64,000 nucleotides of DNA from an uncultured Candidatus Saccharibacteria bacterium (GTDB lineage: Bacteria; Patescibacteriota; Minisyncoccia; Phycocordibacterales; UBA1006): positions 20,127-84,126 of the forward strand of contig CAZROP010000001.1 of NCBI GenBank assembly GCA_964601935.1. The letters are read 5' to 3'. Below are positions 1-21,400 of this stretch, piece by piece. Made by a program: the position numbers and the translations under genes. The notes beneath the pieces are model-generated. The model searched no databases. It saw nothing but the letters and a program-made list of their open reading frames with translations, and had not been told where the DNA came from. The first letter of the stretch is position 1. Every line of letters begins with the position of its first letter.

Positions 1-46
1 CCTTTTATCGAATGTTTCTAGGGCTTTATTCATAATCCATCAGAGT

Positions 47-2041
47 TTACTGCAAACTTTCCATCAGAGCAACTGTCTTTGGACCTACAACACCGTCTAC
101 TCGCAGTTTGTGTACCTTTTGGAACATACGTACCACCTGATCTGTCTTGGGTCCGAATCCACCATCATCGAGCATTGGTTTTGGGGTAAGTTTTTGTGTA
201 TTCAAAAATTGCTGCAATGCCCGGACATGTTTTCCTTCCTGTCCTTTTCTCGTTACGCGATTGCGCAGGAGTGAAAAATCAATTGACTCTGACTTGGCAA
301 CTTCTTTTATCAGAGATAGTGCCTTGCTTTTGGTATCTAAAGGAGTAGTTTTCGCCGCAACAACAGAGGGATTGTACGCCCCTCCGCCTCCACCACCTGA
401 CCCTCCAGTATTTGCCTGTGCGCTGACAGTTGCAGTACGTACTACCTGAGCTGCATTATTCCCTGCCGCATCAGCAACATTATATGTTATGGTATATGCA
501 CCAGGTGCGGCAGTATTTATAGAATTCACCACAACAATATCACTCGTGATAGTACCGTCAATATTATCTACTGCTGTCGCACCCTCATTTGTATAGTTGT
601 CGCCAACATTCATTGTCAAATGTGGAGAGCCAAGCAAGGTAATCACAGGAACTGTACGATCGATAATAATACCGCTAGTCCCTGTACCCGCGAGTAAACT
701 GCCATAACTATCCTGATACTGCAACTCTACGGAATATGTTCCCTCTGCCAATGTTGATACACCTCCCACATAGCTGGTAACCGCGGGGCTGCTCGCTATC
801 AGACCGGCGCTATTAGTGGTAAGGGTAAACGTATGATTACCCGCTGCGACATCAGCCAACGTTGCCGTAACAGTAGAAGGTCCTGTAAAAACAAGCTTGA
901 TAGACCCTGCAAGAGGTGTCTCAGGAAGAGCGTAGTTAACGGCGATACTCGTACTGTAGTTGCCTGCAGCAGGGGTAGTTAATGTTGCAAACTCGGTGAT
1001 GTCAGCATACGCGAGCTCTGGATACGTCGAGGTCATATGCCAAACACCAGGGAAACTCCAGGCAGATAATGGCGCATTCCCCTGAACATAGAAGTGAGAA
1101 GTACTATTATTAATAACAGTACACCCTGTACTACCCGTCTGATAGCACTGCGCAGGGTTATCAGGCCTATTGTTCCAGTACACATTAGTAGGAGCAAACA
1201 CTGACCCGCTCCCCGTATTAATCTCTCCCGTCAAACCAAAGTTTGAAGCATTCGCATTAACACTCGTATCCGAAAAGGCATTGTTCACAATAACATCATG
1301 GTCACCTGTAATAATGCCGAACAAGCCACCACTATTACCTCCTCCGCTTATACTACCCGTACTGTATACATTGGTGTACGTACTCGTACCCGATGTCCAG
1401 AAATCTTCTCCTGCAATCCCTGCAACATTTCCTCCTGCACTAGATGAAGCATTAATATTACGCGCATAGCTATTTGTAATTAGACCACTCACGTTACTCA
1501 CAATACCAAACAAGCCTCCAACAACACCATTGGTTCCGCTGATTGTGAGATCATCTACAAATGATGCCGATACATTGGTGTTAGTAATATTACCAATCAG
1601 GCCTCCCACAAAACTATCACCGCTAATAGTACTGTTGCGGAGACCGACTCCCGAGATAGTGCTGTTGTCAGCTGTTCCTATGAGGCCCACATTCTGACTA
1701 CCCGTAATAGTAATATTATCGAATATCACATCCTGAATAGTTGCTCCATTGATATATCCGAATACACCCAGCCATGACGTTCCTGGCTGTGAAATAGTAA
1801 TATTATAAATCTTATGACCATTACCATCGAATGTTCCCGTGAATTTTGCACCAGGATTACCGATGCGTGTGAACGCGCCCGAACAGGTGATGTCGTTCGA
1901 TAATTCGTAACTGAGACCAAGCCCAGAATTTATATTTTGGAATCCTGCACAGTCAGTAATAGCTACTGCAAATGCACTGTGACTAACGCCAAAAAATGCT
2001 GTGATGAAAATAATGCCAAAAAGATAGTGTTTGATATTCAT
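47..2041 (-). CDS. Secreted right-handed beta-helix repeat protein with an Ig-like (HYR/DUF5011-like) module and a C-terminal PG_binding_1 domain
   Basis: N-terminal signal peptide (MNIKHYLFGIIFITAFFGVSHSAFA). Many GGLIG/GGLFG beta-helix-like repeats. A 'DNIDGTITSDIVVVNS...AAGN' Ig-like segment. The C-terminus 'LQQFLNTQ...DGGFGPKTDQVVRMFQ...VDGVVGPKTVALM' matches the PG_binding_1 consensus. Start placed at the third in-frame Met, just before the signal peptide. Confidence 0.6.
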   Translation of the reverse strand: MNIKHYLFGIIFITAFFGVSHSAFAVAITDCAGFQNINSGLGLSYELSNDITCSGAFTRIGNPGAKFTGTFDGNGHKIYNITISQPGTSWLGVFGYINGATIQDVIFDNITITGSQNVGLIGTADNSTISGVGLRNSTISGDSFVGGLIGNITNTNVSASFVDDLTISGTNGVVGGLFGIVSNVSGLITNSYARNINASSSAGGNVAGIAGEDFWTSGTSTYTNVYSTGSISGGGNSGGLFGIITGDHDVIVNNAFSDTSVNANASNFGLTGEINTGSGSVFAPTNVYWNNRPDNPAQCYQTGSTGCTVINNSTSHFYVQGNAPLSAWSFPGVWHMTSTYPELAYADITEFATLTTPAAGNYSTSIAVNYALPETPLAGSIKLVFTGPSTVTATLADVAAGNHTFTLTTNSAGLIASSPAVTSYVGGVSTLAEGTYSVELQYQDSYGSLLAGTGTSGIIIDRTVPVITLLGSPHLTMNVGDNYTNEGATAVDNIDGTITSDIVVVNSINTAAPGAYTITYNVADAAGNNAAQVVRTATVSAQANTGGSGGGGGGAYNPSVVAAKTTPLDTKSKALSLIKEVAKSESIDFSLLRNRVTRKGQEGKHVRALQQFLNTQKLTPKPMLDDGGFGPKTDQVVRMFQKVHKLRVDGVVGPKTVALMESLQ

Positions 2042-2391
2042 ATATTTAAAACGAGGAAGTAGATTCATATAGCTATATAGTACCAAACAAAATTAGGTAT
2101 GTATGCAGAGGAATCCACTTTTTAAAGAGACTGTCGCAGAACTGATAAACGATGTGTGCATTTCTATCAGAAAAGTTTGAGCCTCACTTTTCGAAGCCTA
2201 ACCGATTGGAGTCGCTTCATGGAAAAACATCTGCCAACCCCCACCAGTCTTTCTCCAATGAGAACTTCTCTGAGAAATAACCTTATCTTTGCCATCAGTA
2301 ATTCTTTCTGTCTTGAATGTCGCGATCGCAATATCATTAGATAGAATATTTACCGCAAAATCACTCATTTGCATTTTGTCGTTTACTTTTT

Positions 2392-2841
2392 TCATCGCGT
2401 TACGAGATAATAGACCGAAAGTGCCAATCCACCCCACCAGCCCAGATCAGAAAAAATAAGACTTACCATGATTTTATTCTGCCAAAATTGTGGTAGAAGC
2501 TCTCCGGCCTTGCCCTCCCTTTCTTTTTGCAAAAGATATGGACTTACACAAAAAGAAAGAAACAAACCATTTAAAATAAGTACACCTGCGATAATAGAAA
2601 GAAACAGAGGTATACCAATAAACGATTCATCCCTGAAAAATATAAATCCACCGAGTATCGCAAGAATGATACCAACCCAAATCAAAGGCTTGGTTACTTT
2701 ATGGGTGCGAGTGGTAGCTTCACTCCAATAATTTGATTTTCGTCCTAAAAACCCATGTATATCAATCACCGTCACAGCTCCGAGACCAATAATAAATCCG
2801 GTAATAAAAATAAATAATCCAATAAAGTCTAAATTAATCAT
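2392..2841 (-). CDS. Hypothetical polytopic membrane protein
   Basis: 149 aa with four hydrophobic helices; no recognisable motif. Confidence 0.4.
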   Translation of the reverse strand: MINLDFIGLFIFITGFIIGLGAVTVIDIHGFLGRKSNYWSEATTRTHKVTKPLIWVGIILAILGGFIFFRDESFIGIPLFLSIIAGVLILNGLFLSFCVSPYLLQKEREGKAGELLPQFWQNKIMVSLIFSDLGWWGGLALSVYYLVTR

Positions 2842-3608
2842 ACATTATTTCTGGGCAAAGGAATAAATACACTGGTTTTTTTCTTATATTCAGCAAATTC
2901 TGGGTTCTCTTCCATCTCTTTTTCAAGCATCGGGATGCCAGATACTTTCAAAATTAAGAAGGTTATAGTGATCGGTCCAATAATTCCGAGCCAACCGTTT
3001 GGCACTGACAAAGCGACGAGCCATAGACCCCACCACTGTGTGACCTCTCCAAAATAATTCGGGTGACGAGTATACGCCCAAAGCCCGCTTTGCATAACCT
3101 TGCCCTTGTTATACGGATTTCTAATAAATCGCGCGAGTTGTGCGTCGCCAACAGCTTCAAAATAAAAACCAACAAGCCAAACAGCTACACCGATAGCATC
3201 GAGTATGCCGAACTCAGCTCCTGCACTTTTATTAACAAGCAACACCGGCGTAACAATCAAAAATAAAAACAGACCTTGCAAAAGATATACTTGAAAATAA
3301 GAACGAATGTAAAACCACTTGCCCCATTCTTTGCGCCATGCGAGATAGCGATAATCTTCTGCCCTACCTTTATTCCGTCCATGAATATGCCATGCCAGAC
3401 GCAATCCCCAAATACTCACTAAAGTTCCAACCAACAACCCTCGCACCCCAGAATCATCGGAAATAAAATAAGATACCCAAGCCATAAGTACAAAGCCCAA
3501 TCCCCACGCCACATCGGCAACGTCGTTCCTTTTTTTAAGCAAAGAAACTACAAACCACAGACTCATGTATGCAAACAGTAGTAAAGTAAGAGTTAGATAA
3601 TAACTCAT
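2838..3608 (-). CDS. Membrane methyltransferase-like protein of the DUF1295 / ICMT / steroid-5-alpha-reductase superfamily
   Basis: Multi-TM protein with the C-terminal motif 'WAYTRHPNYFGEVTQWWGLWL' characteristic of the DUF1295/ICMT-like family. Overlaps neighbouring genes by 4 bp, which suggests an operon. Confidence 0.55.
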   Translation of the reverse strand: MSYYLTLTLLLFAYMSLWFVVSLLKKRNDVADVAWGLGFVLMAWVSYFISDDSGVRGLLVGTLVSIWGLRLAWHIHGRNKGRAEDYRYLAWRKEWGKWFYIRSYFQVYLLQGLFLFLIVTPVLLVNKSAGAEFGILDAIGVAVWLVGFYFEAVGDAQLARFIRNPYNKGKVMQSGLWAYTRHPNYFGEVTQWWGLWLVALSVPNGWLGIIGPITITFLILKVSGIPMLEKEMEENPEFAEYKKKTSVFIPLPRNNV

Positions 3609-4003
3609 AAACCGATTTTAGTTGCGATGAAATAAGCAATAATTGATACAGAACCCGCAATTACTGCGCCCCAAGCCAGGTCAACAATAGTTACCAAAAG
3701 CGGCCAATCCTTTGCAACAGCCAGATTGGTCAGGTCATAGGTCGCATAGCAAACAAAGCCAAACAGCGCCCCAAAAAGAAGGGCATGTGTCCACGATCCT
3801 TTTTCCATAGCCGGCGAGATCACAAATACCACAAGACCTGCAATAAATATCAAATAGAAAATAATAGCTGCGGTCCAGTTCACATCACTCTTCATAAGTG
3901 TGCCAATCTGCCCACGGTAAAAATCATTGGCTACAAGCCCGAGCCATACCATGTCTATGGCAAAGAAAACTGGAAGTGCGATTGCATAAAGTTTTATAAA
4001 CAT
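3605..4003 (-). CDS. DUF2177-like small membrane protein
   Basis: 132 aa, 4 TM. The N-terminal 'PVFFAIDMVWLGLVANDFY' resembles DUF2177. Confidence 0.4.
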   Translation of the reverse strand: MFIKLYAIALPVFFAIDMVWLGLVANDFYRGQIGTLMKSDVNWTAAIIFYLIFIAGLVVFVISPAMEKGSWTHALLFGALFGFVCYATYDLTNLAVAKDWPLLVTIVDLAWGAVIAGSVSIIAYFIATKIGL

Positions 4004-4004
4004 A

Positions 4005-4337
4005 TTATTTATTGAGATACGTAATTGTTAATTGAAGACACATCGCAAATGTTCCCCAGAGAAGATATGGAATGTTGGCGTAAACGACCCAACGGAGTTC
4101 GGGCACACTGTTCCACACTGCAGAGAGTGCCCAGATGAGTGTTCCGACGACGAGCACGATGTCTACTGCAGCGAGAAGATTATTTTTCAAACCAAATTGA
4201 ATTGGAGTGAAAGCGAAGTTGAAAATTAGGTTGAGAATAAAAGGCAAAGCCACCACCCACGAAATCTCTTTGGTGAAAACCTTGTAAAAAACAGTGCCGA
4301 AAGACACGGCAATAATCGCATACAACACCGTCCACAC
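4005..4337 (-). CDS. TspO/MBR-like tryptophan-rich membrane protein, possibly N-terminally truncated
   Basis: Trp-rich TM helices ('WALSAVWNSVPELRWVVYANIPYLLWGTFA') resemble the C-terminal three helices of TspO. Only 110 aa against about 150-160 aa for typical TspO. Confidence 0.35.
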   Translation of the reverse strand: MWTVLYAIIAVSFGTVFYKVFTKEISWVVALPFILNLIFNFAFTPIQFGLKNNLLAAVDIVLVVGTLIWALSAVWNSVPELRWVVYANIPYLLWGTFAMCLQLTITYLNK

Positions 4338-4661
4338 CGGCCCAAAAAGCCAGCTCGGTGGCGCTCATGTTGGTTTAATTAATTGTGAATACCAGTTGTA
4401 TGTATTCATATATTTATCTTAACACTTTTCTAACAAAAATATTCCTACCCCTTATTCCCTTAAGGGGAAACGCAGGTAAAGTACTGCCCTTGTTAGGCAG
4501 GTGAATTGATTCCGATACTAAATTGTCTCTGCGGAGGATCTGGGTTAAGTGCCCACAGGTAAATCCTTGTAAGGGTATTCTAGCACCTTTTGGTTGGATC
4601 AATTTAGGTAAGTGGGTCAGGGGTAGTAAATCCAGCTATTTTCATTATTATAGATAATATT

Positions 4662-5873
4662 ATGGATACTCAACAGCTAGAAAGCAATAATTACTCAAAG
4701 AATAAATCAACAGAAAAGACATACGTTGGTAAGGAGCTCAGAGTAAAAAATGCAGATGGCTCTACTTCAGAAAAGAGATATGTGACAAAAGTATTTGATA
4801 TCGAGGATTTTCAAGAATACTATAAAGATTTAAAAAACAAAGGAATCTTAAAAGTTTTGAGAGAGGGAGAAAGACAAGAAGTTGTAGCAATTGTAGATAA
4901 AGAAGAGAGAAGTTTTTCTTTACGAATTCAGAGGTTTACAAAGGAAACTGGTATGCCTCACTCCCAATCATTTAGTTTCCATAGCGGAGCACTTATAAAA
5001 CTTATTGAGTTTATTGATTCACTTGGCTTTATTGATTTCAGCAACAAAAGCTATTTCAGTTTACATGACACAGAGATTAAGAAACAAAAACAATTCTGGC
5101 TAAATAATACAGAGGTGCTCCAATACATTGAAAGATTCGATTCAAGTTTGTTGAAAAAGATCTTTGAAAAGATTCAAGATGAAAAAAAGCTGAAAATAAT
5201 CCTTGATTCTCTTTCTAGTGTTGAAATTGAACATCTTGAAGCATCAATAAAGCAAGCAGCGTATAAAACAGCCCTTGAAGATCTAAAGAGCATGATTAGT
5301 TTTGAGCAGGATAAAACAAAGAGTATTGTTGAAGAAGTAAAAAAAGATGAACGACTTAATAAATATTCTGCAGGTCAACCAGAAAAAATTTTTCAGAATT
5401 GGATTGAAGCCAATTTATGGATATTTGGGATTGAATACTATAAAAAGCACAATTGGAGAATTATTGATTCAACTCCTAATGAAAATTCTGAGGCTGACTT
5501 AGTAATGGAGACAATGGATGGATACGTTGACCTAATAGAACTAAAACGGCCAAGGACAAAATCAGACAAAATATTATCTTATGACATTGATCATAAAAGT
5601 TTTTTCCCAGCCAGAGATCTTTCTTTAGCATTAGGTCAGTGTTTACATTATTTAAAAAAACTAGATGAGCAAAAAGTCACAATCGAAAAGAAAAATAGTA
5701 CGAAAGTGCTACGACCACGAGTAAAGTTAATAATTGGAAGAAGTGCTGATTTTGACTCAGATGAATATGATGCTTTGAGAATGATTAATTCAAATTTGAG
5801 TCATGTCCAAATTATTACTTACGATGACTTGGTAAAGAACGGGGAATTGATTCTTTCTTATTATAGAAAATAA
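4662..5873 (+). CDS. Shedu-like (DUF4263 / SduA family) candidate anti-phage nuclease: Lys/Glu-rich N-terminal region plus C-terminal RecB-like PD-(D/E)xK nuclease domain
   Basis: The C-terminal ~170 aa contain 'EADLVMETMDGYVDLIELKRP' (the D...ExK of PD-(D/E)xK). Downstream 'LALGQCLHY' gives the RecB-family QxxxY motif. The tail 'VQIITYDDLV' is typical of DUF4263. Protein is ~400 aa, Shedu-sized. An AT-rich -10-like element (tagataatat) lies just upstream. A tRNA-Ser gene is adjacent. Confidence 0.5.
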   Translation: MDTQQLESNNYSKNKSTEKTYVGKELRVKNADGSTSEKRYVTKVFDIEDFQEYYKDLKNKGILKVLREGERQEVVAIVDKEERSFSLRIQRFTKETGMPHSQSFSFHSGALIKLIEFIDSLGFIDFSNKSYFSLHDTEIKKQKQFWLNNTEVLQYIERFDSSLLKKIFEKIQDEKKLKIILDSLSSVEIEHLEASIKQAAYKTALEDLKSMISFEQDKTKSIVEEVKKDERLNKYSAGQPEKIFQNWIEANLWIFGIEYYKKHNWRIIDSTPNENSEADLVMETMDGYVDLIELKRPRTKSDKILSYDIDHKSFFPARDLSLALGQCLHYLKKLDEQKVTIEKKNSTKVLRPRVKLIIGRSADFDSDEYDALRMINSNLSHVQIITYDDLVKNGELILSYYRK

Positions 5874-5969
5874 GTCACGTCTTCAATCGCTGTTTTAAAA
5901 TTACAAAAACACGCAGAATGGAGCCGCGTGTTTTTGTAGTATTCGGGTCACTCCGATACTTAGCTCTAT

Positions 5970-6057
5970 TGGCGGAGACGATGGGATTCGAACCCATGGG
6001 GCTGTTACGCCCACCTCCTTAGCAAGGAGGCACAATCGGCCACTCTGACACGTCTCC
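5970..6057 (-). tRNA. tRNA-Ser (anticodon GCT)
   Basis: Reverse complement folds as a cloverleaf: GGAGACG acceptor, long variable arm, anticodon loop TTGCTAA, T-loop GGTTCGAATCC, 3' GCCA. Confidence 0.85.
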
Positions 6058-6145
6058 GTATACCCATCAGTATACATAATTTTGCCCAACCTGCACGCAG
6101 CCAGGCGCTACTAAAAATACTTACGAGGGGTATCTGGATGTAGGA

Positions 6146-6604
6146 TTATACTGCTGATTCTGCGAGGTCCTTTAGCTTCTGCAGAGCACGTGGCCACATT
6201 TCGCTGAACATAACGGAGTATTCTTCGTTGGAATCCATGTCTATGCGCACCTCTGTTGTGTCACCGTTATTGACGAAGGTATAATTCTCGAAAGCTGGTG
6301 TCCACTTTTTGACTTCATCACTGGTGGTGTCTTCGACCCCGTTTGCTATCATACCTAGATGTTCGATAGAGATAAATTCATACTGTCGGTTATCAGCGAT
6401 CCTGGCCACCATGCCACCTTCACCACTACCATCAGGATTAGGTCCGAGAAACAAAATCTTTGATCCCGGGCTCCAATCACCCTGATAATATGATCCTTCG
6501 TTAAAGGGTACAGTCCATTGTCGATACGTCTCGTCACCCAACATAGTGTTCCATACTGTCTCGACAGGCGCATCTATAGTAATTGTAAAATGTAGTTTTT
6601 CCAT
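6146..6604 (-). CDS. SRPBCC / AHSA1-like (Activator of Hsp90 ATPase homolog, START-like) domain protein
   Basis: 152 aa. The N-terminal 'HFTITIDAPVETVWNTM' pattern is typical of AHSA1/polyketide-cyclase-like SRPBCC proteins. Confidence 0.5.
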   Translation of the reverse strand: MEKLHFTITIDAPVETVWNTMLGDETYRQWTVPFNEGSYYQGDWSPGSKILFLGPNPDGSGEGGMVARIADNRQYEFISIEHLGMIANGVEDTTSDEVKKWTPAFENYTFVNNGDTTEVRIDMDSNEEYSVMFSEMWPRALQKLKDLAESAV

Positions 6605-6672
6605 ATAAATTTAGCGTTACAAGTAATATAGATCTAGTATATCATTACTCATCTCAAATTACCCGATTACCT

Positions 6673-7137
6673 CTAGAGAATCTCAGACCTTATGTGCTTC
6701 ATCTTTTTCCAATCAATCTCCTCTGTATTTCCTTGTGCATCAACGAAGAATAGATAAAGGTTTAGTTTATCCATTACATCAAAAGGTAACTTCTTAATAA
6801 TCATTTTTCTAAAAGACACCGGAAAGGCAATTCCATATTTGTAACCATACTTGTACGCTCGCTTGCCTTTGCGATGCATTCTGGTAATTATTTGACCAAG
6901 TGCAGAATTAAAACTACTACTTCTGCTACCCCCAGGACTTTTCACAATAGCAGAAGGATCTCCTTTTGCTTCTATTAACCAGTAACGAGAAAACTTATTA
7001 TTCCTTACTTTAATGTCAACGCCATGCTCCCACAATTCGGCACTCTGCAAAGATTTACTCCAGCCTTGTGCTTCGAGATACTGCACTACACACCTTTGCA
7101 CGAAGTCCTCTTTGATAATTTTAGCGGATTCTGACAT
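6673..7137 (-). CDS. Small PD-(D/E)xK nuclease-like hypothetical protein
   Basis: 154 aa. 'HGVDIKVRNNKFSRYWLIEAKGD' gives a D-x17-E-A-K restriction-endonuclease-like motif. No further family recognised. Confidence 0.35.
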   Translation of the reverse strand: MSESAKIIKEDFVQRCVVQYLEAQGWSKSLQSAELWEHGVDIKVRNNKFSRYWLIEAKGDPSAIVKSPGGSRSSSFNSALGQIITRMHRKGKRAYKYGYKYGIAFPVSFRKMIIKKLPFDVMDKLNLYLFFVDAQGNTEEIDWKKMKHIRSEIL

Positions 7138-7175
7138 GTGTTATCGAGTGATATATCTAAAACACTAAATCATGT

Positions 7176-7263
7176 TGGCGGAGGGAGCGAGATTCGAACT
7201 CGCGAAGAGTTTCCCCTTGCCGGTTTTCAAGACCGGTGCCTTCAACCACTCGGCCATCCCTCC
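7176..7263 (-). tRNA. tRNA-Ser (anticodon TGA)
   Basis: Reverse complement: GGAGGGA acceptor, D-loop AGTGGTTGA, anticodon loop CTTGAAA, long variable arm, T-loop GTTCGAATC, 3' GCCA. Confidence 0.85.
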
Positions 7264-7328
7264 ATCTGTGCCGTATTCGACAACGCAAAAAGTATACCAG
7301 ATTTTCCGAAATACGCTATACTAAAAAT

Positions 7329-8459
7329 ATGCGTATTATTGCTATTATATTTGCCCTGGCCCTCATAACTACGCCCTGCCTGACCTCTGCATCAGCTAAT
7401 ATAGAATATTTACGGGGTGTTATTATTTCAACTCAAGAAGACGTCAACGAACAGTCTATTAATGGAGATACTATATATCGTGCGCAGATCCAAACGCAAT
7501 CAGGAGTCATCGAGGCAGAAAACGAGCTCGGGATTCTGGAACCTGGAGACAGGGTCATCGTTAGAACAGAACAAGTCCCTAATTATGATGACGAGACTGC
7601 CGGAAGCTCGGAAACTGTTTACAGCATTTACGAACGTGACCGAATAATTCCGCTCATCGCGCTCGCTCTCGTGTTTGCAGGTGCGGTTATCAGCCTGGGC
7701 GTACGTCAGGGTCTGCGCGCACTATCTGCGCTGGCTGGTACATTATTCGTAATATTTGGTATATATATCCCCTCACTATTAGCTGGCTTCTCGCCTCTGA
7801 CCACCAGTATTATCATGGGGCTTCTGATTGCAGGGTGTGCTGTATTTATCACCCATGGATTCAAACGATCTTCTGCTGTTGCCTATGGTAGTACGGTACT
7901 GTCTGTTATCGTTGCTGTTATTATTGCAATGATTGCTATTCACGCATCAGGACTGACAGGTGCTACCAGTGACGAGGTTACATTTTTGGCTGCGACGAGC
8001 GTGCGCGCATTTGATTTTATCGGCATTATGATTGGTGGCGTTATCATTGCGATGCTCGGCGTACTAGATGATATCGCAATTACGCAGGTTGCGGTAGTGG
8101 AAGAATTAAAGCGATCAAAGCCTAACTCAACATTCACGGAATTGTATCGTGCTGCGCTACGGGTAGGGCGTGATCATGCAGGCGCGTTGGTGAATACATT
8201 AGTGCTGGCATATGCAGGAACATCTCTACCGCTGCTGTTATTGTTACAGTCTCAGAACCTGGATACATTCGTTGTGATTAACCAAGAACAATTTGCATTC
8301 GAGATCATCAGATCGCTATCGGGCAGTATCGGGCTCGTTGCATGTGTGCCTATCGCTACCCTACTGGCAATATACCTTACCAGACCCTGTGACCATAACC
8401 ACACGACTGATGGATGTCCACACTGTATGACAAAACTATCTAGCACAAACCAGAGTTAA
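7329..8459 (+). CDS. YibE/F-family membrane protein
   Basis: Signal/TM N-terminus, soluble N-terminal domain, then ~8 TM helices with Gly/Ala-rich helices (YibE/F-like). Start moved to the ATG at 7329 because the longer ORF runs into the tRNA. Confidence 0.5.
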   Translation: MRIIAIIFALALITTPCLTSASANIEYLRGVIISTQEDVNEQSINGDTIYRAQIQTQSGVIEAENELGILEPGDRVIVRTEQVPNYDDETAGSSETVYSIYERDRIIPLIALALVFAGAVISLGVRQGLRALSALAGTLFVIFGIYIPSLLAGFSPLTTSIIMGLLIAGCAVFITHGFKRSSAVAYGSTVLSVIVAVIIAMIAIHASGLTGATSDEVTFLAATSVRAFDFIGIMIGGVIIAMLGVLDDIAITQVAVVEELKRSKPNSTFTELYRAALRVGRDHAGALVNTLVLAYAGTSLPLLLLLQSQNLDTFVVINQEQFAFEIIRSLSGSIGLVACVPIATLLAIYLTRPCDHNHTTDGCPHCMTKLSSTNQS

Positions 8460-8501
8460 CACATATCCTCCGTAAATATAAAAATGAAAAACACAAATAG
8501 A

Positions 8502-9014
8502 TTATGGCGAGACTCCGAACAACTGAAGCAGTGGGATAGCTATTGGGTCAGCTGCTGCTCCATAAACCATCACGCCCCCGAATACACCTGTAACAACAAG
8601 AGCCACTAGACCTAGTACCGACAGTAGAACAGTAATAATTCTAGTGTCGACAAATGCTGCAATCATATACAATAATCGAATCACCGTATAGCGGTTCAAA
8701 TTAGAGTATCTCCTGTGTATATACTCAACAATTACAGAACCTAGTAGTATTCCATAAAATAACTGAACGAGGGAGGCGAACGTTTCGTGGAGCTCCAGCA
8801 GATCGTGCTGAGGATTATTTAAACCAGCAGCAACCTCGCCAGTAACCGCGCCGGCTAAAGAACCTAGAAAACCTATACATAATAGTAATGTTTTTATTTG
8901 TGTCCATGCAATCTTTGGAAACCACCTGTGTAGCGGAAGTATTTGCAGCAAAGAGTAAATACACAATAGAGCAACTGGAAAATGGACCACTAGAGGGTGA
9001 AAGTCATATGTCAT
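8502..9014 (-). CDS. DUF2231-like membrane protein
   Basis: The N-terminal 'HPLVVHFPVALL' motif is typical of DUF2231. 4-5 TM helices. Confidence 0.45.
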   Translation of the reverse strand: MTYDFHPLVVHFPVALLCIYSLLQILPLHRWFPKIAWTQIKTLLLCIGFLGSLAGAVTGEVAAGLNNPQHDLLELHETFASLVQLFYGILLGSVIVEYIHRRYSNLNRYTVIRLLYMIAAFVDTRIITVLLSVLGLVALVVTGVFGGVMVYGAAADPIAIPLLQLFGVSP

Positions 9015-9048
9015 ATACTCCTTAGTGTACTCCTATTCCCCTATATAG

Positions 9049-9082
9049 CAAAACCGCCTCTGGCATAGAGACGGTTTTGCTA
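9049..9082. terminator. Intrinsic-terminator-like hairpin after rplE
   Basis: GCAAAACCGCCTCTGGCATAGAGACGGTTTTGC is a perfect 12-bp stem. It lies between the convergent end of rplE and the upstream side of the DUF2231 gene. Confidence 0.55.
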
Positions 9083-9100
9083 TAACCAAACAAATACTTG

Positions 9101-9637
9101 TTACTTTTTGAACGGTACTCCGATATGATCGAAAAATGCCATTGCTTCATCACGATTGCGTGCGGTTGTAACCACATTGATCGCGAGTCCGAATATATCT
9201 TTCAGATCTTCTTCTGCACATTCTGGAAAAATAGAATGCTCTCGGATACCGATAGTGAGGTTACCCATACTATCTACCGCTGTACGGTTCAGTCCACGGA
9301 AGTCCTTTGTACGAGGTAATGTGATGTGGATGAGCTTCTCTAGGAACTCCTGCATCTTTTTACCACGTAGTGTTACTACCTGACCTACTTCATCACCCTG
9401 ACGGATTTTGAATCCTGCAATTGATTTCTTTGCAGTACGGGGAGAGGGCTTCTGTCCTGTAATACGCGCCAAACGATCTGCAACCAATGTATGAACTGTT
9501 TTATCGAAACGTGCACGCTTGCCTGTTCCAACTGATATCAGTATCTTTGTTATTTTTGGTGCAGCTAGCTTGTTCGTGTATCCGAACTTACCCCTCAAAG
9601 CTTCGTATGCCGAATTAATTTTGTCTGAGACTATCAT
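9101..9637 (-). CDS. rplE: 50S ribosomal protein L5
   Basis: Strong similarity pattern to L5 (KLAAPKITKILISVGTG...), expected length, and position after L24. Confidence 0.9.
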   Translation of the reverse strand: MIVSDKINSAYEALRGKFGYTNKLAAPKITKILISVGTGKRARFDKTVHTLVADRLARITGQKPSPRTAKKSIAGFKIRQGDEVGQVVTLRGKKMQEFLEKLIHITLPRTKDFRGLNRTAVDSMGNLTIGIREHSIFPECAEEDLKDIFGLAINVVTTARNRDEAMAFFDHIGVPFKK

Positions 9638-9640
9638 ATA

Positions 9641-9943
9641 TTATTTTATGACTTGTCCGCTTGCTTTCGCTACGCGGACTTTTTTGCCACTCTCGACCAA
9701 AAATCCTACACGTGTCGGCTTGCCAGACTTTGGATCTTTCAATGCCACATTTGATACATGGACAGGATATTCACGAGCAACGAGCTTTTTCTCATTTCCT
9801 ACGCGTCGTACTGCATGCTTGATATTAATGCCCGAAACTACAACACGATCTGCAGTAGGTAATACCTGGAGTACTTCGCCTGTTTGTTTTTTCTGTGACC
9901 CAGTCAGTATTACTACTGTGTCTCCTTTTTTGATTTTGTTCAT
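9641..9943 (-). CDS. rplX: 50S ribosomal protein L24
   Basis: KOW-motif protein 'MNKIKKGDTVVILTGSQKK'. Start taken at the internal Met, giving ~100 aa; the listed ORF is extended upstream. Confidence 0.85.
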   Translation of the reverse strand: MNKIKKGDTVVILTGSQKKQTGEVLQVLPTADRVVVSGINIKHAVRRVGNEKKLVAREYPVHVSNVALKDPKSGKPTRVGFLVESGKKVRVAKASGQVIK

Positions 9944-9959
9944 ATAGATTATATTTGGA

Positions 9960-10337
9960 CTACAGGACTTCAGGTGCCAATGACGCAATCTTGTTATAGC
10001 CTCGCTCCGACACTTCACGAGGAATAGGACCGAATACACGGGTACCACGAGGGTCACCCTTTCCATCAATGAGAACGATTGCGTTTTCATCGAATCGGAT
10101 ATAGGACCCATCAGGACGACGGAAGCTCGCCTTTTGGCGAACTACTACGCCTTTGTGTACTGTTCCTTTTTTAACTTGCTTGTTAGGTTCTGCGGTTTTA
10201 ATTGCAACAATTACCACATCCCCAATGTATGCATAGCGGCGTTTCGATGCACCTGGTACTTTGAATACCTGTGCTGTCGATCCACCACTGTTGTCAGCGA
10301 TGACAACTTTTGATCCGGCTTGCAACATATTAGACAA
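9960..10337 (-). CDS. rplN: 50S ribosomal protein L14
   Basis: 'MLQAGSKVVIADNSGG...' is typical of L14 (~122 aa). Confidence 0.9.
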   Translation of the reverse strand: MSNMLQAGSKVVIADNSGGSTAQVFKVPGASKRRYAYIGDVVIVAIKTAEPNKQVKKGTVHKGVVVRQKASFRRPDGSYIRFDENAIVLIDGKGDPRGTRVFGPIPREVSERGYNKIASLAPEVL

Positions 10338-10584
10338 CTACGCGGAAGGCAACTGTTTTTGCTACAGGTGCACATTCCTCGATTACTACTTTGCTGCCGA
10401 CCTTTGGCATTTCGCCTGCAACATGGGCTTTGTATTTCTTTGATACAGTATAGAACTTTCCGTACTTTGGATGTTTAACGAAGCGGTCAACTTTGACCAC
10501 TACCGTACTCATCATTTTGTCCGAAACCACTACACCTTCAAAACGTTTTTTATTTATTACTTTATCCATATTATTTTGCACCAA
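10330..10584 (-). CDS. rpsQ: 30S ribosomal protein S17
   Basis: 84 aa with 'FEGVVVSDKMMSTVVVKVDRFVKHPKYGK', the typical S17 OB fold. Confidence 0.85.
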   Translation of the reverse strand: MVQNNMDKVINKKRFEGVVVSDKMMSTVVVKVDRFVKHPKYGKFYTVSKKYKAHVAGEMPKVGSKVVIEECAPVAKTVAFRVVV

Positions 10585-10759
10585 GTGCGGTCAATGCTCG
10601 AGCAACACTTCGACGAAGCATGCGCTTTTCTGCTGGGTTCTTGCTAGATAAGGACAATGACAATGTTTCCAGTTTCTTGCGAGAATCAGTGACAAACTTT
10701 TGCAACTCGTCTGCTGATTGTGCTGTGAAATCTTCTTTCTTTGATGTTTTCTTTGACAT
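10571..10759 (-). CDS. rpmC: 50S ribosomal protein L29
   Basis: Start taken at the internal Met (MSKKTSKK...) to give ~62 aa. Helical, Lys-rich, and in the expected position between L16 and S17. Confidence 0.7.
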   Translation of the reverse strand: MSKKTSKKEDFTAQSADELQKFVTDSRKKLETLSLSLSSKNPAEKRMLRRSVARALTALGAK

Positions 10760-10898
10760 AATTGTTTTTACTTGAGGGGTTTCAAATTTGGATGAAGATT
10801 GAAGTGAATTATGTGTGGGCGGGAGGATTGCATACATAGCGTACGATGACGACCCAAGCACATTAATTCACGAAAAGATTCACCAAATTTGGAAGCCC

Positions 10899-11333
10899 TT
10901 AGACGAGTGTATGTTTGTCGACGATCTTAACCTTAACTGGTAATTTTGCCCCTGCCTTGCGTAGAGCTTCGCGAGCAACTGCCTCGGAAACATTATCCAC
11001 CTCGAACAGAATGCGTCCTGGCTCTACTTCTACGCAGTAACCGTCCAAGCCTCCCTTACCCTTTCCCATTGGGACTTCTGCAGCCTTTTTGGTGATAGGG
11101 CGATCGGGGAATACGCGGATCCAGTACTTGCCCAATTTTCCGACAGTACGAGACACAACCTTACGAGCTGATTCGATCTGACGTGATGTGATGCGAGCTG
11201 GAGTGATTGCTTTTACAGCGTATGATCCAAACTGCAATTCTGTGCCACGTGTTGCAACGCGATTTGCGAGAACATCTGCATTACGGCGCCCCACCTGCCA
11301 GCGTCGGTATTTTACTTTTTTAGGAAACAACAT
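10899..11333 (-). CDS. rplP: 50S ribosomal protein L16
   Basis: 'MLFPKKVKYRRWQVGRR...' is the canonical L16 N-terminus; 144 aa. Confidence 0.9.
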   Translation of the reverse strand: MLFPKKVKYRRWQVGRRNADVLANRVATRGTELQFGSYAVKAITPARITSRQIESARKVVSRTVGKLGKYWIRVFPDRPITKKAAEVPMGKGKGGLDGYCVEVEPGRILFEVDNVSEAVAREALRKAGAKLPVKVKIVDKHTLV

Positions 11334-11339
11334 AATTTA

Positions 11340-12041
11340 TTATGCATTTCTGCGAGCTGGCTGATTGTTCGACTCTGCGTTTGCATTCTCTAGACTGTCT
11401 CCACGGTTAATCCATACCTTGATACCGATAACACCGTAGGTCATCTTTGCGCGCTCACGAGCGTAATCGATATCAGCACGAATAAACTGTAGTGGAATTG
11501 ATCCCAGTTTTACCTCTTCTTTACGAGACATATCTGCGCCACCCAATCGTCCAGACAGAACGATACGGACACCTTTTACGCCACGTGACTGCATAACCTT
11601 TTCTGCGTTCATTTTCATGGTGCGCTTGAACTGGATACGCTTTTCTAGTTCCTGAACAATCTGTAGTGCAACAATCTTTGCATCAGATTCAGGATTAGTA
11701 ATTTCTGAAATATCGATCTTTACATCCTTTGGAATGTTCAGCTTTCGCTTTGCAGCAAATGCCAAAACGTCTTTACGGATATTAGTGATACCTTCACCTG
11801 ACCGTCCTATGACCAATCCCGGACGTGATGTCGCGATTGTTATCTTCATAGTTGAATGATCACGTTCGATAACAATATTGGAAACGAATTGAGTACGAAG
11901 CTTCTTTTCCAAGTACTCACGAACCAATACATCACCCTGCAGATAATTACGATACTCGCGTTTGGATCCTCCAACCCAGCGTGATAGCCATGGGCGTATG
12001 GTAACCAAACGTAGTGAATATGGATGAACTACTTTTGACAT
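11340..12041 (-). CDS. rpsC: 30S ribosomal protein S3
   Basis: KH domain plus S3 C-terminal domain; 'GIKVWINRG' is a conserved S3 motif. Confidence 0.9.
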   Translation of the reverse strand: MSKVVHPYSLRLVTIRPWLSRWVGGSKREYRNYLQGDVLVREYLEKKLRTQFVSNIVIERDHSTMKITIATSRPGLVIGRSGEGITNIRKDVLAFAAKRKLNIPKDVKIDISEITNPESDAKIVALQIVQELEKRIQFKRTMKMNAEKVMQSRGVKGVRIVLSGRLGGADMSRKEEVKLGSIPLQFIRADIDYARERAKMTYGVIGIKVWINRGDSLENANAESNNQPARRNA

Positions 12042-18427: not shown

Positions 18428-21400
18428 TTACTTGGGGCACCCAACCATCACCTTAATCTTAGCGCTCAGTGTAGGGGTATATGCTCCTGTCTCAGCCATA
18501 TTGAACCTCTTCTGCAACAAACGTACATACGCCTTGGACGACCTCCCATACACTCCGTCTATGACTACTTCACCTCTGAGGACATAGGCTATGAATCTCT
18601 GAAGATTAGTGATTGATGTCTTTGAGCTTGAGGACGATATGGTAGTGGCTGGTAATGCTGCACAGGCTTGTGCCAGTACTGCAGGCGGTAGTTTCTGTAT
18701 ATGGCAGAGCATATCAGAATGGAGAGGCAGTGTAGGTTCGGTGTCGAATACATTCGAGAAACCCCGCAGGTCTATTCCTGCTCCTGTGAGTATTGATACA
18801 CCAGGTGTTGTAGCATAGAGATCTCTTTGTGTAGGAGTGAGTTGTGAGTCTATAACCTTGTAGGCAGAGGTACAAGTAGGCAATACTTCTCCTCCTGATG
18901 CATAGGTTGTAGGCTTCTTAGTCTTCTTTGCATTATAGAGCTCTATCAGTTTTGTCATGAATGGATTACTGAGGATATTTGTTTCTACAGGTATATTGTT
19001 CTTCTTATGGAGATCAGTGATTGCTTTGGTTGTTGTTGTGTTTTGTCTTCCTGTGATAGTTGTTTTGTAACCTAGAGTACGAAGCATGGATTGGATGGAT
19101 TTCCAGTCTACTTTTCCGGTGGGGGTGGTGGTTGAGATGGGTGTAGTAGTAATTGCTGGAGGTAAAATTGTTGAGGTTGGTGTCTTTATGCAGCCCGTTG
19201 GAGTGAGGATGTGTGTTGAGGGGCAGCTGGGGGTGGAGGGTCCTCCTCCTCCTGAAGAAACAGAAGGTGCTGGGGTATAGACAATCAAAGCTTTATTTGC
19301 GCTCAAACTACCAGCTACACCAGGCGATGGAAGCAACAAACGTACCGGAGCCGTTTGTGCAGTGGTTGTTATGTTGCCTCCATTCAGATTGAGGGCACCT
19401 ACTGATGCGTAATCGAGATCAGAAGAAGTATCGCTTGGTCCCACAGTATAATTAAACGTTAGTGTATCAGTACCCGATCCCGAAATATAATTAGCCACTG
19501 CATCAGTCGCACCAGTCTCTAGTGTCAACTGCGGTGTTCCTGTGACGGTTACTGATTCACTGAATTGAATCAGAATATTAATGGTACCACCGTTCGTGTA
19601 CGAGCCATCCGAATTACCGGAAGCAACGTTGAGAATGGTAGGGACACTTATATCGAAAATCATAGTGCGATTCGCCGGCTCATCAGATACATAAAGCCTC
19701 TTATTTTGAGAATCTATCATGAGGTCAATAGGGTCTACGATACTGGATTGCGTGACAGCGGTACTATAGTTCAAAAAATTAGGTTGTCCGAGCACATTGA
19801 TAGCTGACTCTCCATTGGTGATATCTGCCACGTCAAATACAAGAACACGGGCAGCCGAGTAATCTGCGACAAACAATCTACTGTACACCTCATCATAGCT
19901 TAGCCCATTCGGCTCGCCACCAAAACCAGCTTGACCTCCGTTAGCGTTTGCTGTAACAAAATCAGGTTGTCCGAGCACATTGATAGCTGACTCTCCATTG
20001 GTGATATCTGCCACGTCAAATACAAGAACACGGGCATTACCACCATCTGAAACAAATAACCTTCGCTGAATAGCGTCATACGTAACCCCTGTAGCTTCGT
20101 CCATCTTACTCTGTGTCGTACCGACAGTGCAGGTAACAAAGTCAGGTTGTCCGAGCACATTGATAGCTGACTCTCCATTGGTGATACCTGCTATATCAAA
20201 AACAACAATACGGCGGTTGCTCCGATCTGAAACAAACAATCTATTTCCCGTCGGATCGAGCGATAAATAGCTAGGATTATTTAATCTTGAAGCTGAACAA
20301 GCACTTGTAATATTGCTGAAATTTGCTTGCCCCAAAACATTTACAGGAGCATCTCCGTTCTCTATAGTGGAAACATTCCATACGAGAACACGCTGCTTGT
20401 CCGCATCTGCCACAAACAGCCTGTTCTGCCCTGAATCATAAACGAGACCTGCAGCATAAGAAAATCCGTAGAACCCCCCCGAGGACGTATCCCAGAAATT
20501 CTGCTGCCCTAATACATAATCAGGTGTTTTGTCTACCAAGATATTTGATGAATTTAAGTTAAATACTAAAATACGAGAACCATCTGCCAAAAAAAGTCTA
20601 TGATTAGTATAATCAATCGCAAGACCTGCAGGCTGACTCAACCCATAAGGATTTATCTGCGTACCGTCGTTACTATCTTGTGTATAATAATCTACTTCTA
20701 GCCCATCATTATAAGTCGACTGCCCTACAGCGTCAATCGCATCTTCTCCATCAGTAATAGCTGTAGTATCAAATATCATTATACGGTTACTGCCAGTGTC
20801 TGATACATAGGTTCGATTATTGGTAGAGTCATAATATACTCCTTCTGGGGAACTAGTAACCCCTGTGTCCGCAAATCCAGATCCTGACTCAAAATCAGGC
20901 TGACCTAAAATATTAACCGCAGGCTCACCATTGGTAATAGTTGCTATATTAAACACTTTTACACCACTGCCCCCGCTCTCTGCAACATACAATCTATTAT
21001 TTGCTGCATCGTGGGCGATCGCATTGGGCTGATTCATGCCATCTTGGGTAATATTGTCACTAGCACTGACAAAATCAGGTTGACCTAGCACATTGATAGC
21101 GTTTTCTCCATCAGTAATAACTGTAGTGTCAAATACGAGAACTCGATGATTTGCGGTATCTGCAACATAGGCACGAGTTCCTGATGTATTGATCCCTATA
21201 CCCTGCGGGGCGAACATCCTGTTCTGTGAGGCGAGAGCTGAGCTTGTTGTAAAATTAGCTTGCCCGAGTACATTAGCTGCAGCCTGGCCATTAACAATAG
21301 AAGTAGTGTTATATATCACAGCACGATTATTACCTGTATCTGCAACGTATAAACGAGCATTGACACTATCGTATGCCAGTCTATACGGAATATTCAGACG

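Follow-up and report, generated by a model that had tools for sequence, protein, structure and literature searches.

A probable type I Shedu immune nuclease gene inserted beside a tRNA-Ser gene in a Patescibacteria genome

Can a genome of the small, host-dependent type hold a single-gene defence system and, if so, of what kind and by what route was it gained? The question is raised by an open reading frame (ORF) at positions 4662–5873 (plus strand) of a 64,000-nucleotide stretch of DNA, hereafter the window, taken from contig CAZROP010000001.1 of an uncultured Candidatus Saccharibacteria bacterium (GenBank assembly GCA_964601935.1; forward-strand positions 20,127–84,126). A preliminary description of the window, made from the sequence alone, proposed that this ORF encodes a Shedu-like, DUF4263-containing nuclease of the PD-(D/E)xK type. 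The ORF is complete (ATG to TAA, 403 aa), with exactly the boundaries and length given in that description. We consider it likely that it encodes a type I Shedu (SduA) immune nuclease and was horizontally inserted into a Patescibacteria genome.

Does the protein belong to the Shedu family? The Pfam family SduA_C (PF14082, DUF4263) matches it with an E-value of 4.4e-18 and 66.4 bits (gathering score, 27), in an alignment that spans residues 240–391 and profile positions 3–159 of 159. Thirteen SduA models from PADLOC also match (best, 6e-34), and one of these, PDLC00394, is aligned over nearly its full length: residues 9–398 correspond to model positions 5–383 of 392 (E = 1.6e-24). The N-terminal part of the protein is therefore already represented in an existing Shedu model. 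No matching model was found in NCBIfam. Since a single-sequence search of the PDB returned nothing relevant, a profile of 32 homologs was used instead; this profile matches the Escherichia coli Shedu effector (8ps4, 3.5e-11) and Bacillus cereus SduA (8ti9, 7e-6), hereafter EcSduA and BcSduA. An AlphaFold model of the whole protein (mean predicted local distance difference test score, pLDDT, 80.4) was compared with the PDB by Foldseek: all nine matches at E ≤ 0.001 are EcSduA or BcSduA chains, with E-values from 1e-8 to 1e-5 and TM-scores of up to 0.64 on the target, while FokI and nicking endonucleases trail far behind in the ranking. The ORF is thus a genuine, intact Shedu SduA homolog whose domain match lies far beyond chance, and the family assignment proposed in the preliminary description holds. 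The identical protein occurs elsewhere in public data—on a 377-kb NCBI contig and in two Logan assemblies from different runs—and window positions 3223–7238 are 100% identical in two Logan assemblies.

The next question is whether the catalytic residues are in place. The DUF4263 PD-(D/E)xK nuclease domain occupies residues 236–403 (positions 5367–5870, plus strand), and the three sequence motifs quoted in the preliminary description are all present: VDLIELK at residues 289–295, GQCLHY at 325–330, and ITYDDL at 385–390. Residues E241, W247, G256, D279, I292, E293, K295, Q326 and Y330 are invariant in the 32-sequence alignment. Equivalences were counted from the profile alignments against the residues named in the two structural papers, where essential residues were demonstrated experimentally for EcSduA (Loeff et al., Cell 2025) and BcSduA (Gu et al., Mol Cell 2025); residue numbers in the E. 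coli PDB chain carry an offset of +3. In motif I, E241 corresponds to E226 of EcSduA and E204 of BcSduA, and Q245, four positions further on, to Q230 of EcSduA (the B. cereus residue is not named). As the 8ps4 alignment begins only at D279, this pair was matched to E. coli through its equal spacing and through the B. cereus alignment. Motif II is represented by D279 (EcSduA D269, BcSduA D249), motif III by E293 (E283; E264, which is Ala in the deposited mutant chain) and K295 (K285; K266), and motif IV by Q326, together with Y330 (Q314; Q295). The aligned catalytic Asp, Glu, Lys and Gln residues all coincide with residues that are essential in EcSduA and BcSduA, and by this comparison the PD-(D/E)xK active site is complete: Glu in motif I, Asp in motif II, Glu-x-Lys in motif III, and Gln in motif IV.

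As modelled, the protein consists of a beta-rich domain (residues 19–121), a set of helices (136–235) and the nuclease (240–403); the corresponding parts of EcSduA are residues 1–145, 146–188 and 195–408. This predicted architecture—N-terminal domain, helical linker, C-terminal DUF4263—is that of type I Shedu in the scheme of Loeff et al., and of Type 1 in that of Gu et al. The putative regulatory or sensor module at the N-terminus (residues 1–125; positions 4662–5036, plus strand) combines a beta-sheet at residues 19–93, within which seven strands are predicted, with a helix at 110–121; a short strand follows, and then the helices of residues 136–235. The N-terminal fold was seen in two models, one of the full-length protein and a separate one of residues 1–149 (pLDDT 84.5). 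The helical linker (residues 126–235; positions 5037–5366, plus strand) is the most variable segment, with low pLDDT at residues 152–163 and the lowest identity among orthologs; its counterparts are residues 146–188 in EcSduA and 118–170 in BcSduA. The N-terminal two thirds had been described beforehand as a Lys/Glu-rich helical region. The composition is roughly as described (K+E 25% over residues 1–235), but the helical linker is confined to residues 136–235 and the predicted structure of residues 19–93 is beta.

How close does the likeness to the two characterized proteins come? EcSduA (type I; PDB 8ps4/8ps5) shares the three-part layout at similar length (~408 aa, compared with 403 here), has counterparts here for each of its residues E226, Q230, D269, E283, K285 and Q314, and is the best PDB match by both profile and Foldseek (1e-8). 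However, identity is only ~15%, and the DNA-end clamp of EcSduA with its conserved Trp25 can therefore not be assumed in the window protein. BcSduA (from B. cereus B4264; Type 1A; PDB 8ti8/8ti9) aligns in nuclease motifs I–IV and resembles the model in two structural details: motif IV lies on a long helix (residues 318–345 here), and the motif II loop is poorly ordered (here with pLDDT below 50 at residues 272–276). TM-scores to BcSduA, normalized to the target, are 0.56–0.64. There are also differences: the linker of the window protein is about twice as long as that of BcSduA, and the BcSduA N-domain is predicted to be sPC4/Whirly-like, whereas no significant Whirly/PC4 match was obtained for the window protein (WHY1 ranks 41st, with a probability of 0.14).

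The N-terminal module is the least familiar part of the protein. Its signature, FSLRIQRF-K-TG-PH-QSFSF, is strongly conserved, and its invariant residues include K43, V44, F50, S86, Q90, R91, F92, K94, G97, P99, F104 and F106. A sequence profile of the domain retrieved neither of the SduA N-domains in the PDB and no Pfam family, a search of its fold against solved structures gave no matching structure, and homology to the N-domain of EcSduA, the end-stacking Trp class, was not found. The module is thus unlike the E. coli DNA-end clamp and not detectably Whirly-like; possibly it has a sensor fold that belongs to none of the solved classes. When the N-domain alone was compared with 1.84 billion representative sequences, 55 clusters were recovered, and in every one the match lies at or near the N-terminus. 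All ten of the full-length carriers that were scanned contain SduA_C, and the module has therefore so far been seen only in Shedu proteins.

Orthologs at 41–90% identity share all three parts with the window protein. They belong to a subfamily (P0002–P0028; PADLOC PDLC00394) that is found in metagenome-assembled genomes (MAGs) of Parcubacteria, Saccharibacteria, Omnitrophica and Sedimentisphaerales; the whole protein aligns, N-module included, and the annotation of members goes no further than 'DUF4263 domain-containing' or hypothetical. Other relatives are mosaics. Three proteins (P0025, P0027 and P0028) are 75–77% identical to the window protein in the N-domain and 24–29% in the nuclease, which is of a different DUF4263 subtype; together with a fourth, P0045, they show ~76% identity in the N-module and ~25% in the DUF4263 core, and the stretch FSLRIQRF...FIDFSNK differs by one mismatch. 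Five more (P0030, P0032, P0053, P0070 and P0114) show the opposite pattern, with 16–18% identity in the N-domain and 49–58% in the nuclease; P0053, from Hymenobacter, is named 'Shedu anti-phage system protein SduA domain-containing protein'. These identities indicate that module shuffling runs both ways: one N-module appears with two cores that are ~25% identical, and one core with unrelated N-modules. Such a mosaic implies that distinct Shedu lineages have recombined within the linker.

Is the gene maintained? Compared with the 90% identical ortholog (locus L006), the proportion of nonsynonymous differences (pN) is 0.049 and that of synonymous differences (pS) 0.69, giving a dN/dS of about 0.03; for the 84% ortholog (L003) the values are 0.082, 0.67 and about 0.05. 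Within each of the three domains dN/dS lies between 0.02 and 0.10. These ratios are approximate because dS is near saturation; the conservative figure, raw pN/pS, is 0.07–0.12. The comparisons show strong purifying selection on the gene, with all of its parts constrained, and make a decaying relic very unlikely.

To which organism does the gene belong, and is it native there? By ribosomal protein uS3, the host falls within the Patescibacteria, or candidate phyla radiation (CPR): uS3 relatives are up to 84% identical, and the nearest named ones, from Candidatus Paceibacterota and Pacebacteria, ~57%. A reduced genome is plausible from this placement. Saccharibacteria MAGs are the source of two Shedu orthologs, L004 and L005, but since the Shedu gene is mobile this origin does not place the host. 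At 31.7%, the GC content of the gene is the lowest among the 54 ORFs of the window (43.7 ± 3.1%; z = −3.9); GC at third codon positions is 26%, and the low-GC block coincides with the Shedu ORF. The gene also lies on the minority strand (14 plus-strand ORFs, 40 minus-strand ORFs). No flanking gene is common to the window and the orthologs at 90, 84, 67 and 64% identity. Conversely, 80 metagenome loci were fetched that carry close relatives of the neighbouring DUF1295 gene (69–87% aa identity); DUF2177 is also present in most of these loci, and TspO in many. A Shedu homolog is present in none of the 80, at least 15 of which extend more than 2 kb past TspO. A housekeeping gene kept in syntenic position is not what these data describe: the gene is missing from 80/80 relatives that share the neighbouring cluster, and its orthologs all stand in different contexts. 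What the comparison shows is absence of the gene rather than a base-precise empty site, because the 80 loci are too diverged and their tRNA-Ser isoacceptors differ. Compositionally foreign, the gene looks horizontally acquired.

Both ends of the presumed import can be approached by comparison. The 324-nt spacer 5' of the gene is composite. Positions 4338–4432 match DNA beside TspO in many relatives; positions 4433–4510 resemble neither flank and form the junction interval between host core DNA and imported segment; and positions 4511–4654 are 81% identical to DNA 5' of the 90% ortholog. On the other side, similarity among the orthologous loci ends at the stop codon, with none detected 3' of it. 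The imported unit is therefore mapped to ~4511–5873 (about 1.36 kb). This segment would have been inserted between the TspO promoter region and a minus-strand tRNA-Ser(GCT) gene (5970–6057; ARAGORN and Rfam), which forms the right-hand landmark of the insertion and lies outside the system.

No integrase, att repeat, tRNA fragment or other integration scar was found in the window, and no tRNA-derived att-like repeat on the far side of the gene. A 15-nt direct repeat does bracket the ORF (4645–4659, TTATTATAGATAATA; 5858–5872, TTATTATAGAAAATA), with a weaker version in L003 and L006, and was considered as a scar. It is most likely due to chance, given its AT-rich sequence and a 3' copy that codes for the conserved C-terminal YY-R/S-K; by our own estimate, chance alone would give ~3 pairs of this kind in 3.4 kb. 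In one related locus (L016), a gene for a 456-aa large serine recombinase (6117–7522 of that locus) overlaps the end of the tRNA-Ser(GCT) gene, between this tRNA gene and TspO. The neighbourhood therefore accepts mobile DNA.

Close orthologs are found most often in a Type I restriction-modification (R-M) operon: the 83% (P0004) and 81% (P0005) orthologs lie between hsdS and hsdR, in the former case with gaps of 5–7 nt, and the 49% ortholog (P0012) directly follows hsdS with overlapping codons, its next gene running off the contig and a serine recombinase lying nearby. The coordinates of the R-M-embedded orthologs are 2622–3833 in L090, 5375–6586 in L091, 4238–5449 in L092 and 7001–8179 in L094; in L090–L092 hsdR comes next and is followed by a YgjP-like gene, while in L094 (49%) the next gene runs past the contig end. 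Defence genes are known from within Type I R-M operons (e.g., TgvAB of Vibrio cholerae VPI-2); the 83%, 81% and 49% orthologs occupy the slot after hsdS. This embedding is a feature of the orthologs; the solitary window copy has no R-M genes nearby. The 90% ortholog (P0002) stands beside a ParB-methyltransferase, a second methyltransferase, Mrr_cat and DUF2779, and the 84% ortholog (P0003) beside UDG, SocA/Panacea, RecQ, an SNF2/AEP helicase and Fic. More distant ones are found on a conjugative or mobilizable element with TraG/TrwB coupling protein and relaxase (P0010, 54%), and next to a transposase fragment and three toxin–antitoxin pairs (P0018, 45%). In a survey by Gu et al., 602 of 5,499 Shedu genes lay inside R-M systems and 1,110 were associated with transposable elements. 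On gene content, the contexts of the orthologs are those expected of Shedu. A defence-island or mobile-element setting thus characterizes the subfamily as a whole, and is not seen at the window locus.

Two observations on these loci are recorded here. In L003, L008, L009 and seven or more other contigs, which come from independent assemblies, the P0003 ortholog always starts 80–190 nt from a contig end; one of these contigs is 103 kb long. The position suggests a repeat or strain-variable junction directly 5' of the gene. In L093, the 59% ortholog (P0009) is preceded, at a distance of 3 nt, by the gene for a 599-aa DUF6119 protein (1532–3331); DUF6119 and Shedu may form a two-gene arrangement, with DUF6119 as a possible Shedu partner.

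The window gene itself stands alone. It has no co-oriented neighbour: TspO is divergent on one side, and the tRNA gene convergent on the other. The preliminary description had taken it for a solitary candidate anti-phage gene in a genome of host-dependent, small type, and both the arrangement and the placement of the host by uS3 bear this out. The same description had the gene directly upstream of a tRNA-Ser gene and in the usual context of a defence island. The adjacency is real, but the gene is not upstream in a transcriptional sense: the tRNA gene runs towards it on the other strand, and a hairpin separates the two. The island did not survive inspection: the neighbours encode a surface protein (Ig-like and peptidoglycan-binding domains), DUF1295, DUF2177, TspO, AHSA1-like, YibE/F and DUF2231 proteins, membrane and housekeeping-type genes of which none is a recognized defence gene, and it is elsewhere that the subfamily has defence contexts.

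What would the protein do? By analogy with EcSduA and BcSduA, it would assemble into a homotetramer through its nuclease domains; the N-terminal module and linker would hold the nuclease inactive until an infection-associated (nucleic-acid) cue is received; and the activated enzyme would nick or cut invading linear double-stranded DNA in a Mg2+-dependent manner, sparing the circular chromosome. For both characterized proteins, deletion of the N-domain and linker produces toxicity, and both protect against phages (Loeff et al.; Gu et al.). Several points weigh against this reading of the window gene. The oligomeric state, the substrate and the trigger are each taken over from proteins that are only 15–20% identical to it in the nuclease domain; the searches of Pfam and of solved structures do not assign the N-domain to any sensor class; none of the eight neighbouring proteins, ~4.5 kb either side, has a PADLOC match, and the locus is therefore not a defence island; no relatives of the protein were found in viral contigs, which leaves no pointer to a target; and a sigma-70 scan gave five sites where 5.3 are expected from shuffled sequence, none of them suitably placed upstream of the gene. 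By the last result, an AT-rich promoter-like element previously proposed for the gene is not above chance.

We therefore asked what else the gene could be. Its product might act mainly against other incoming DNA (linear DNA taken up by competence, plasmids, conjugative elements), or might serve the mobile elements that carry it, such that superinfection exclusion or addiction benefits the carrier element and not the host cell. The presence of one ortholog on a conjugative or mobilizable element with coupling protein and relaxase fits this proposal, as do the transposase fragments, serine recombinases and toxin–antitoxin modules beside others; moreover, EcSduA blocks the propagation of linear DNA independently of phage (Loeff et al.), Shedu genes occur on transposable elements and prophages (Gu et al.), and competence genes have been reported across Patescibacteria. 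Against it, no partner from a mobile element accompanies the window gene (its neighbours include no integrase, relaxase or toxin–antitoxin gene), the Type I R-M operon in which close orthologs most often lie is a classical setting for anti-phage genes, and both characterized Shedu proteins are anti-phage. We regard this alternative as unlikely; it invokes the same biochemistry, and differs in the target rather than in the nature of the protein.

A second alternative concerns the protein itself, which would be a housekeeping repair or recombination nuclease, a PD-(D/E)xK enzyme like EndoMS/NucS that merely resembles Shedu. Outside Shedu, EndoMS is indeed the structure most closely related to the Shedu fold, and strong purifying selection would be compatible with such a role. 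The distribution, patchy and non-syntenic, contradicts it: the gene is absent from every one of the 80 relatives with the same adjacent genes, each ortholog has a different context, and GC content is strongly deviant. Shedu models also outscore generic nuclease families by far, and nothing other than SduA was matched structurally at E ≤ 0.001; the chance that this alternative is correct is very slim. Could the gene instead be an inactive remnant, gained by transfer in the past but now silent or without function in this genome? A promoter above chance expectation and partner genes are both missing, and a nonsense codon in the adjacent TspO gene implies some decay at the locus. Yet the ORF runs unbroken over 403 codons and retains every catalytic residue, its 5' region is conserved too, the identical sequence is found in two independent assemblies, and pN/pS is ~0.07 against orthologs with saturated synonymous sites, so that the lineage leading to the window copy has been under constraint. 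An inactive remnant is accordingly highly improbable, and an intact type I Shedu gene acquired by transfer remains our preferred reading.

The non-coding DNA 5' of the gene raises a question of its own. Despite their unrelated contexts, the window gene and the 90% ortholog (L006/L007) share ~150 bp of 5' DNA (4511–4654, plus strand, in the window); synonymous sites of the two genes, by contrast, are near saturation (pS 0.69). The comparison is one of two independent sequences, in which the long identical blocks are TGGGTTAAGTG, CCCACAGGTAAA, TATTCTAGCACCTTTT, TCAATTTAGGTA and GGGTAGTAAATCC. No further copy was found elsewhere in the window, in the other fetched loci or in viral contigs. As a known RNA the segment was rejected, no Rfam family matching 4511–4654; its folding is unremarkable (z = −0.5), and a two-sequence consensus fold contains only two compensatory pairs. 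It was likewise rejected as an hsdS relic or small ORF, for which there is no tblastn match and, by inspection, no triplet pattern of differences. The segment, which travels with the gene, may be a promoter, an operator or a leader. A more ambitious proposal is that it is a dedicated cis-regulatory element of this Shedu lineage, either an operator for a repressor or a structured leader RNA, and, separately, that the N-module has a sensor fold not among the solved classes; we offer this tentatively, as a rather unlikely possibility. If true, the 5' element would keep a potentially self-toxic nuclease silent until infection.

Downstream, an inverted repeat (5897–5943) forms a 15-bp hairpin flanked by A/T runs. 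On either strand its folding is more stable than that of shuffled sequence (plus, z = −2.9; minus, z = −3.5), and its position between the convergent Shedu and tRNA-Ser genes makes it a likely bidirectional terminator. A simple terminator scan missed it because its loop is 11 nt long. It is probably host DNA, since similarity to the orthologous loci stops at the stop codon.

The remaining features concern the neighbourhood. A second PD-(D/E)xK ORF was previously proposed at 6673–7137 (minus strand, 154 aa), a claim that we could not substantiate: the Mrr_cat match is sub-threshold (E = 0.12, 12.9 bits against a cut-off of 21) and recurs in 3/21 homologs, NOV_C reaches 0.027 (2/21), hhalign gives a probability of 0.3% against the Shedu profile, and a profile of the ORF finds nothing relevant in the PDB and no support from Pfam. 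Its invariant residues E10, D41, E56-x-K58 and Q82 do fit the nuclease motif pattern, which is not a statistical test. The 342 homologs (68–81% identity, none with a Pfam domain) are spread over many CPR lineages, including Colwellbacteria, Gracilibacteria, Nomurabacteria and Paceibacterota; a gene so widespread and so well conserved is more suggestive of a CPR-wide function than of cargo in an island. The ORF has a lowish GC content of 38% and lies between two tRNA-Ser genes, tRNA-Ser(GCT) and tRNA-Ser(TGA) (7176–7263; ARAGORN and Rfam).

On the other side, the TspO gene (4005–4409, minus strand) contains an in-frame TGA at 4365–4367, in place of a Trp conserved in six relatives (MNTYNWYSQLIKPT*APPSW here, ...KPTWAPPSW in the relatives); two independent assemblies agree on it. 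It looks like a lone nonsense mutation, or else forces a restart at a GTG (4337) with the loss of ~24 residues. Recoding of UGA was considered and rejected, given a coding density of 87% under code 11 and the lack of any other clear gene that would need read-through. Stop codons of the 54 window ORFs are TAA (29), TAG (21) and TGA (4), and three of the four ORFs that end in TGA are consecutive, overlapping membrane genes (2392–4003). Further along, a ribosomal cluster (8502–12041, minus strand; uS3-uL16-uL29-uS17-uL14-uL24-uL5) ends after uL5 (9101), and a DUF2231 membrane protein follows where uS14, uS8 and uL6 normally come. The region of ~1–9100, and with it the Shedu site, may thus lie within or next to an spc operon that has been broken.

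What does this gene add to the knowledge of Shedu? The domain and this class of architecture were known already, as was the link to R-M systems, and an existing PADLOC model covers the N-module; standard defence-finder tools would flag the gene, and the current understanding of Shedu is unchanged. In the literature searched, we found nothing linking Shedu with Saccharibacteria or reporting Shedu in a Patescibacteria genome. One paper mentions both Shedu and Patescibacteria without linking them, and Gu et al. list DPANN archaea for Shedu and do not name CPR in their text. This silence is a descriptive gap rather than a surprise. The present work provides a firm functional annotation for an unnamed gene and for a subfamily of ~30 clusters that is mostly labelled hypothetical. 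Moreover, because one N-module is shared by two cores and one core by unrelated N-modules, these proteins make a convenient test case for control by the N-domain. If the gene is the immune nuclease that we consider likely, then very small, host-dependent genomes would acquire single-gene innate immunity and maintain it under strong selection.

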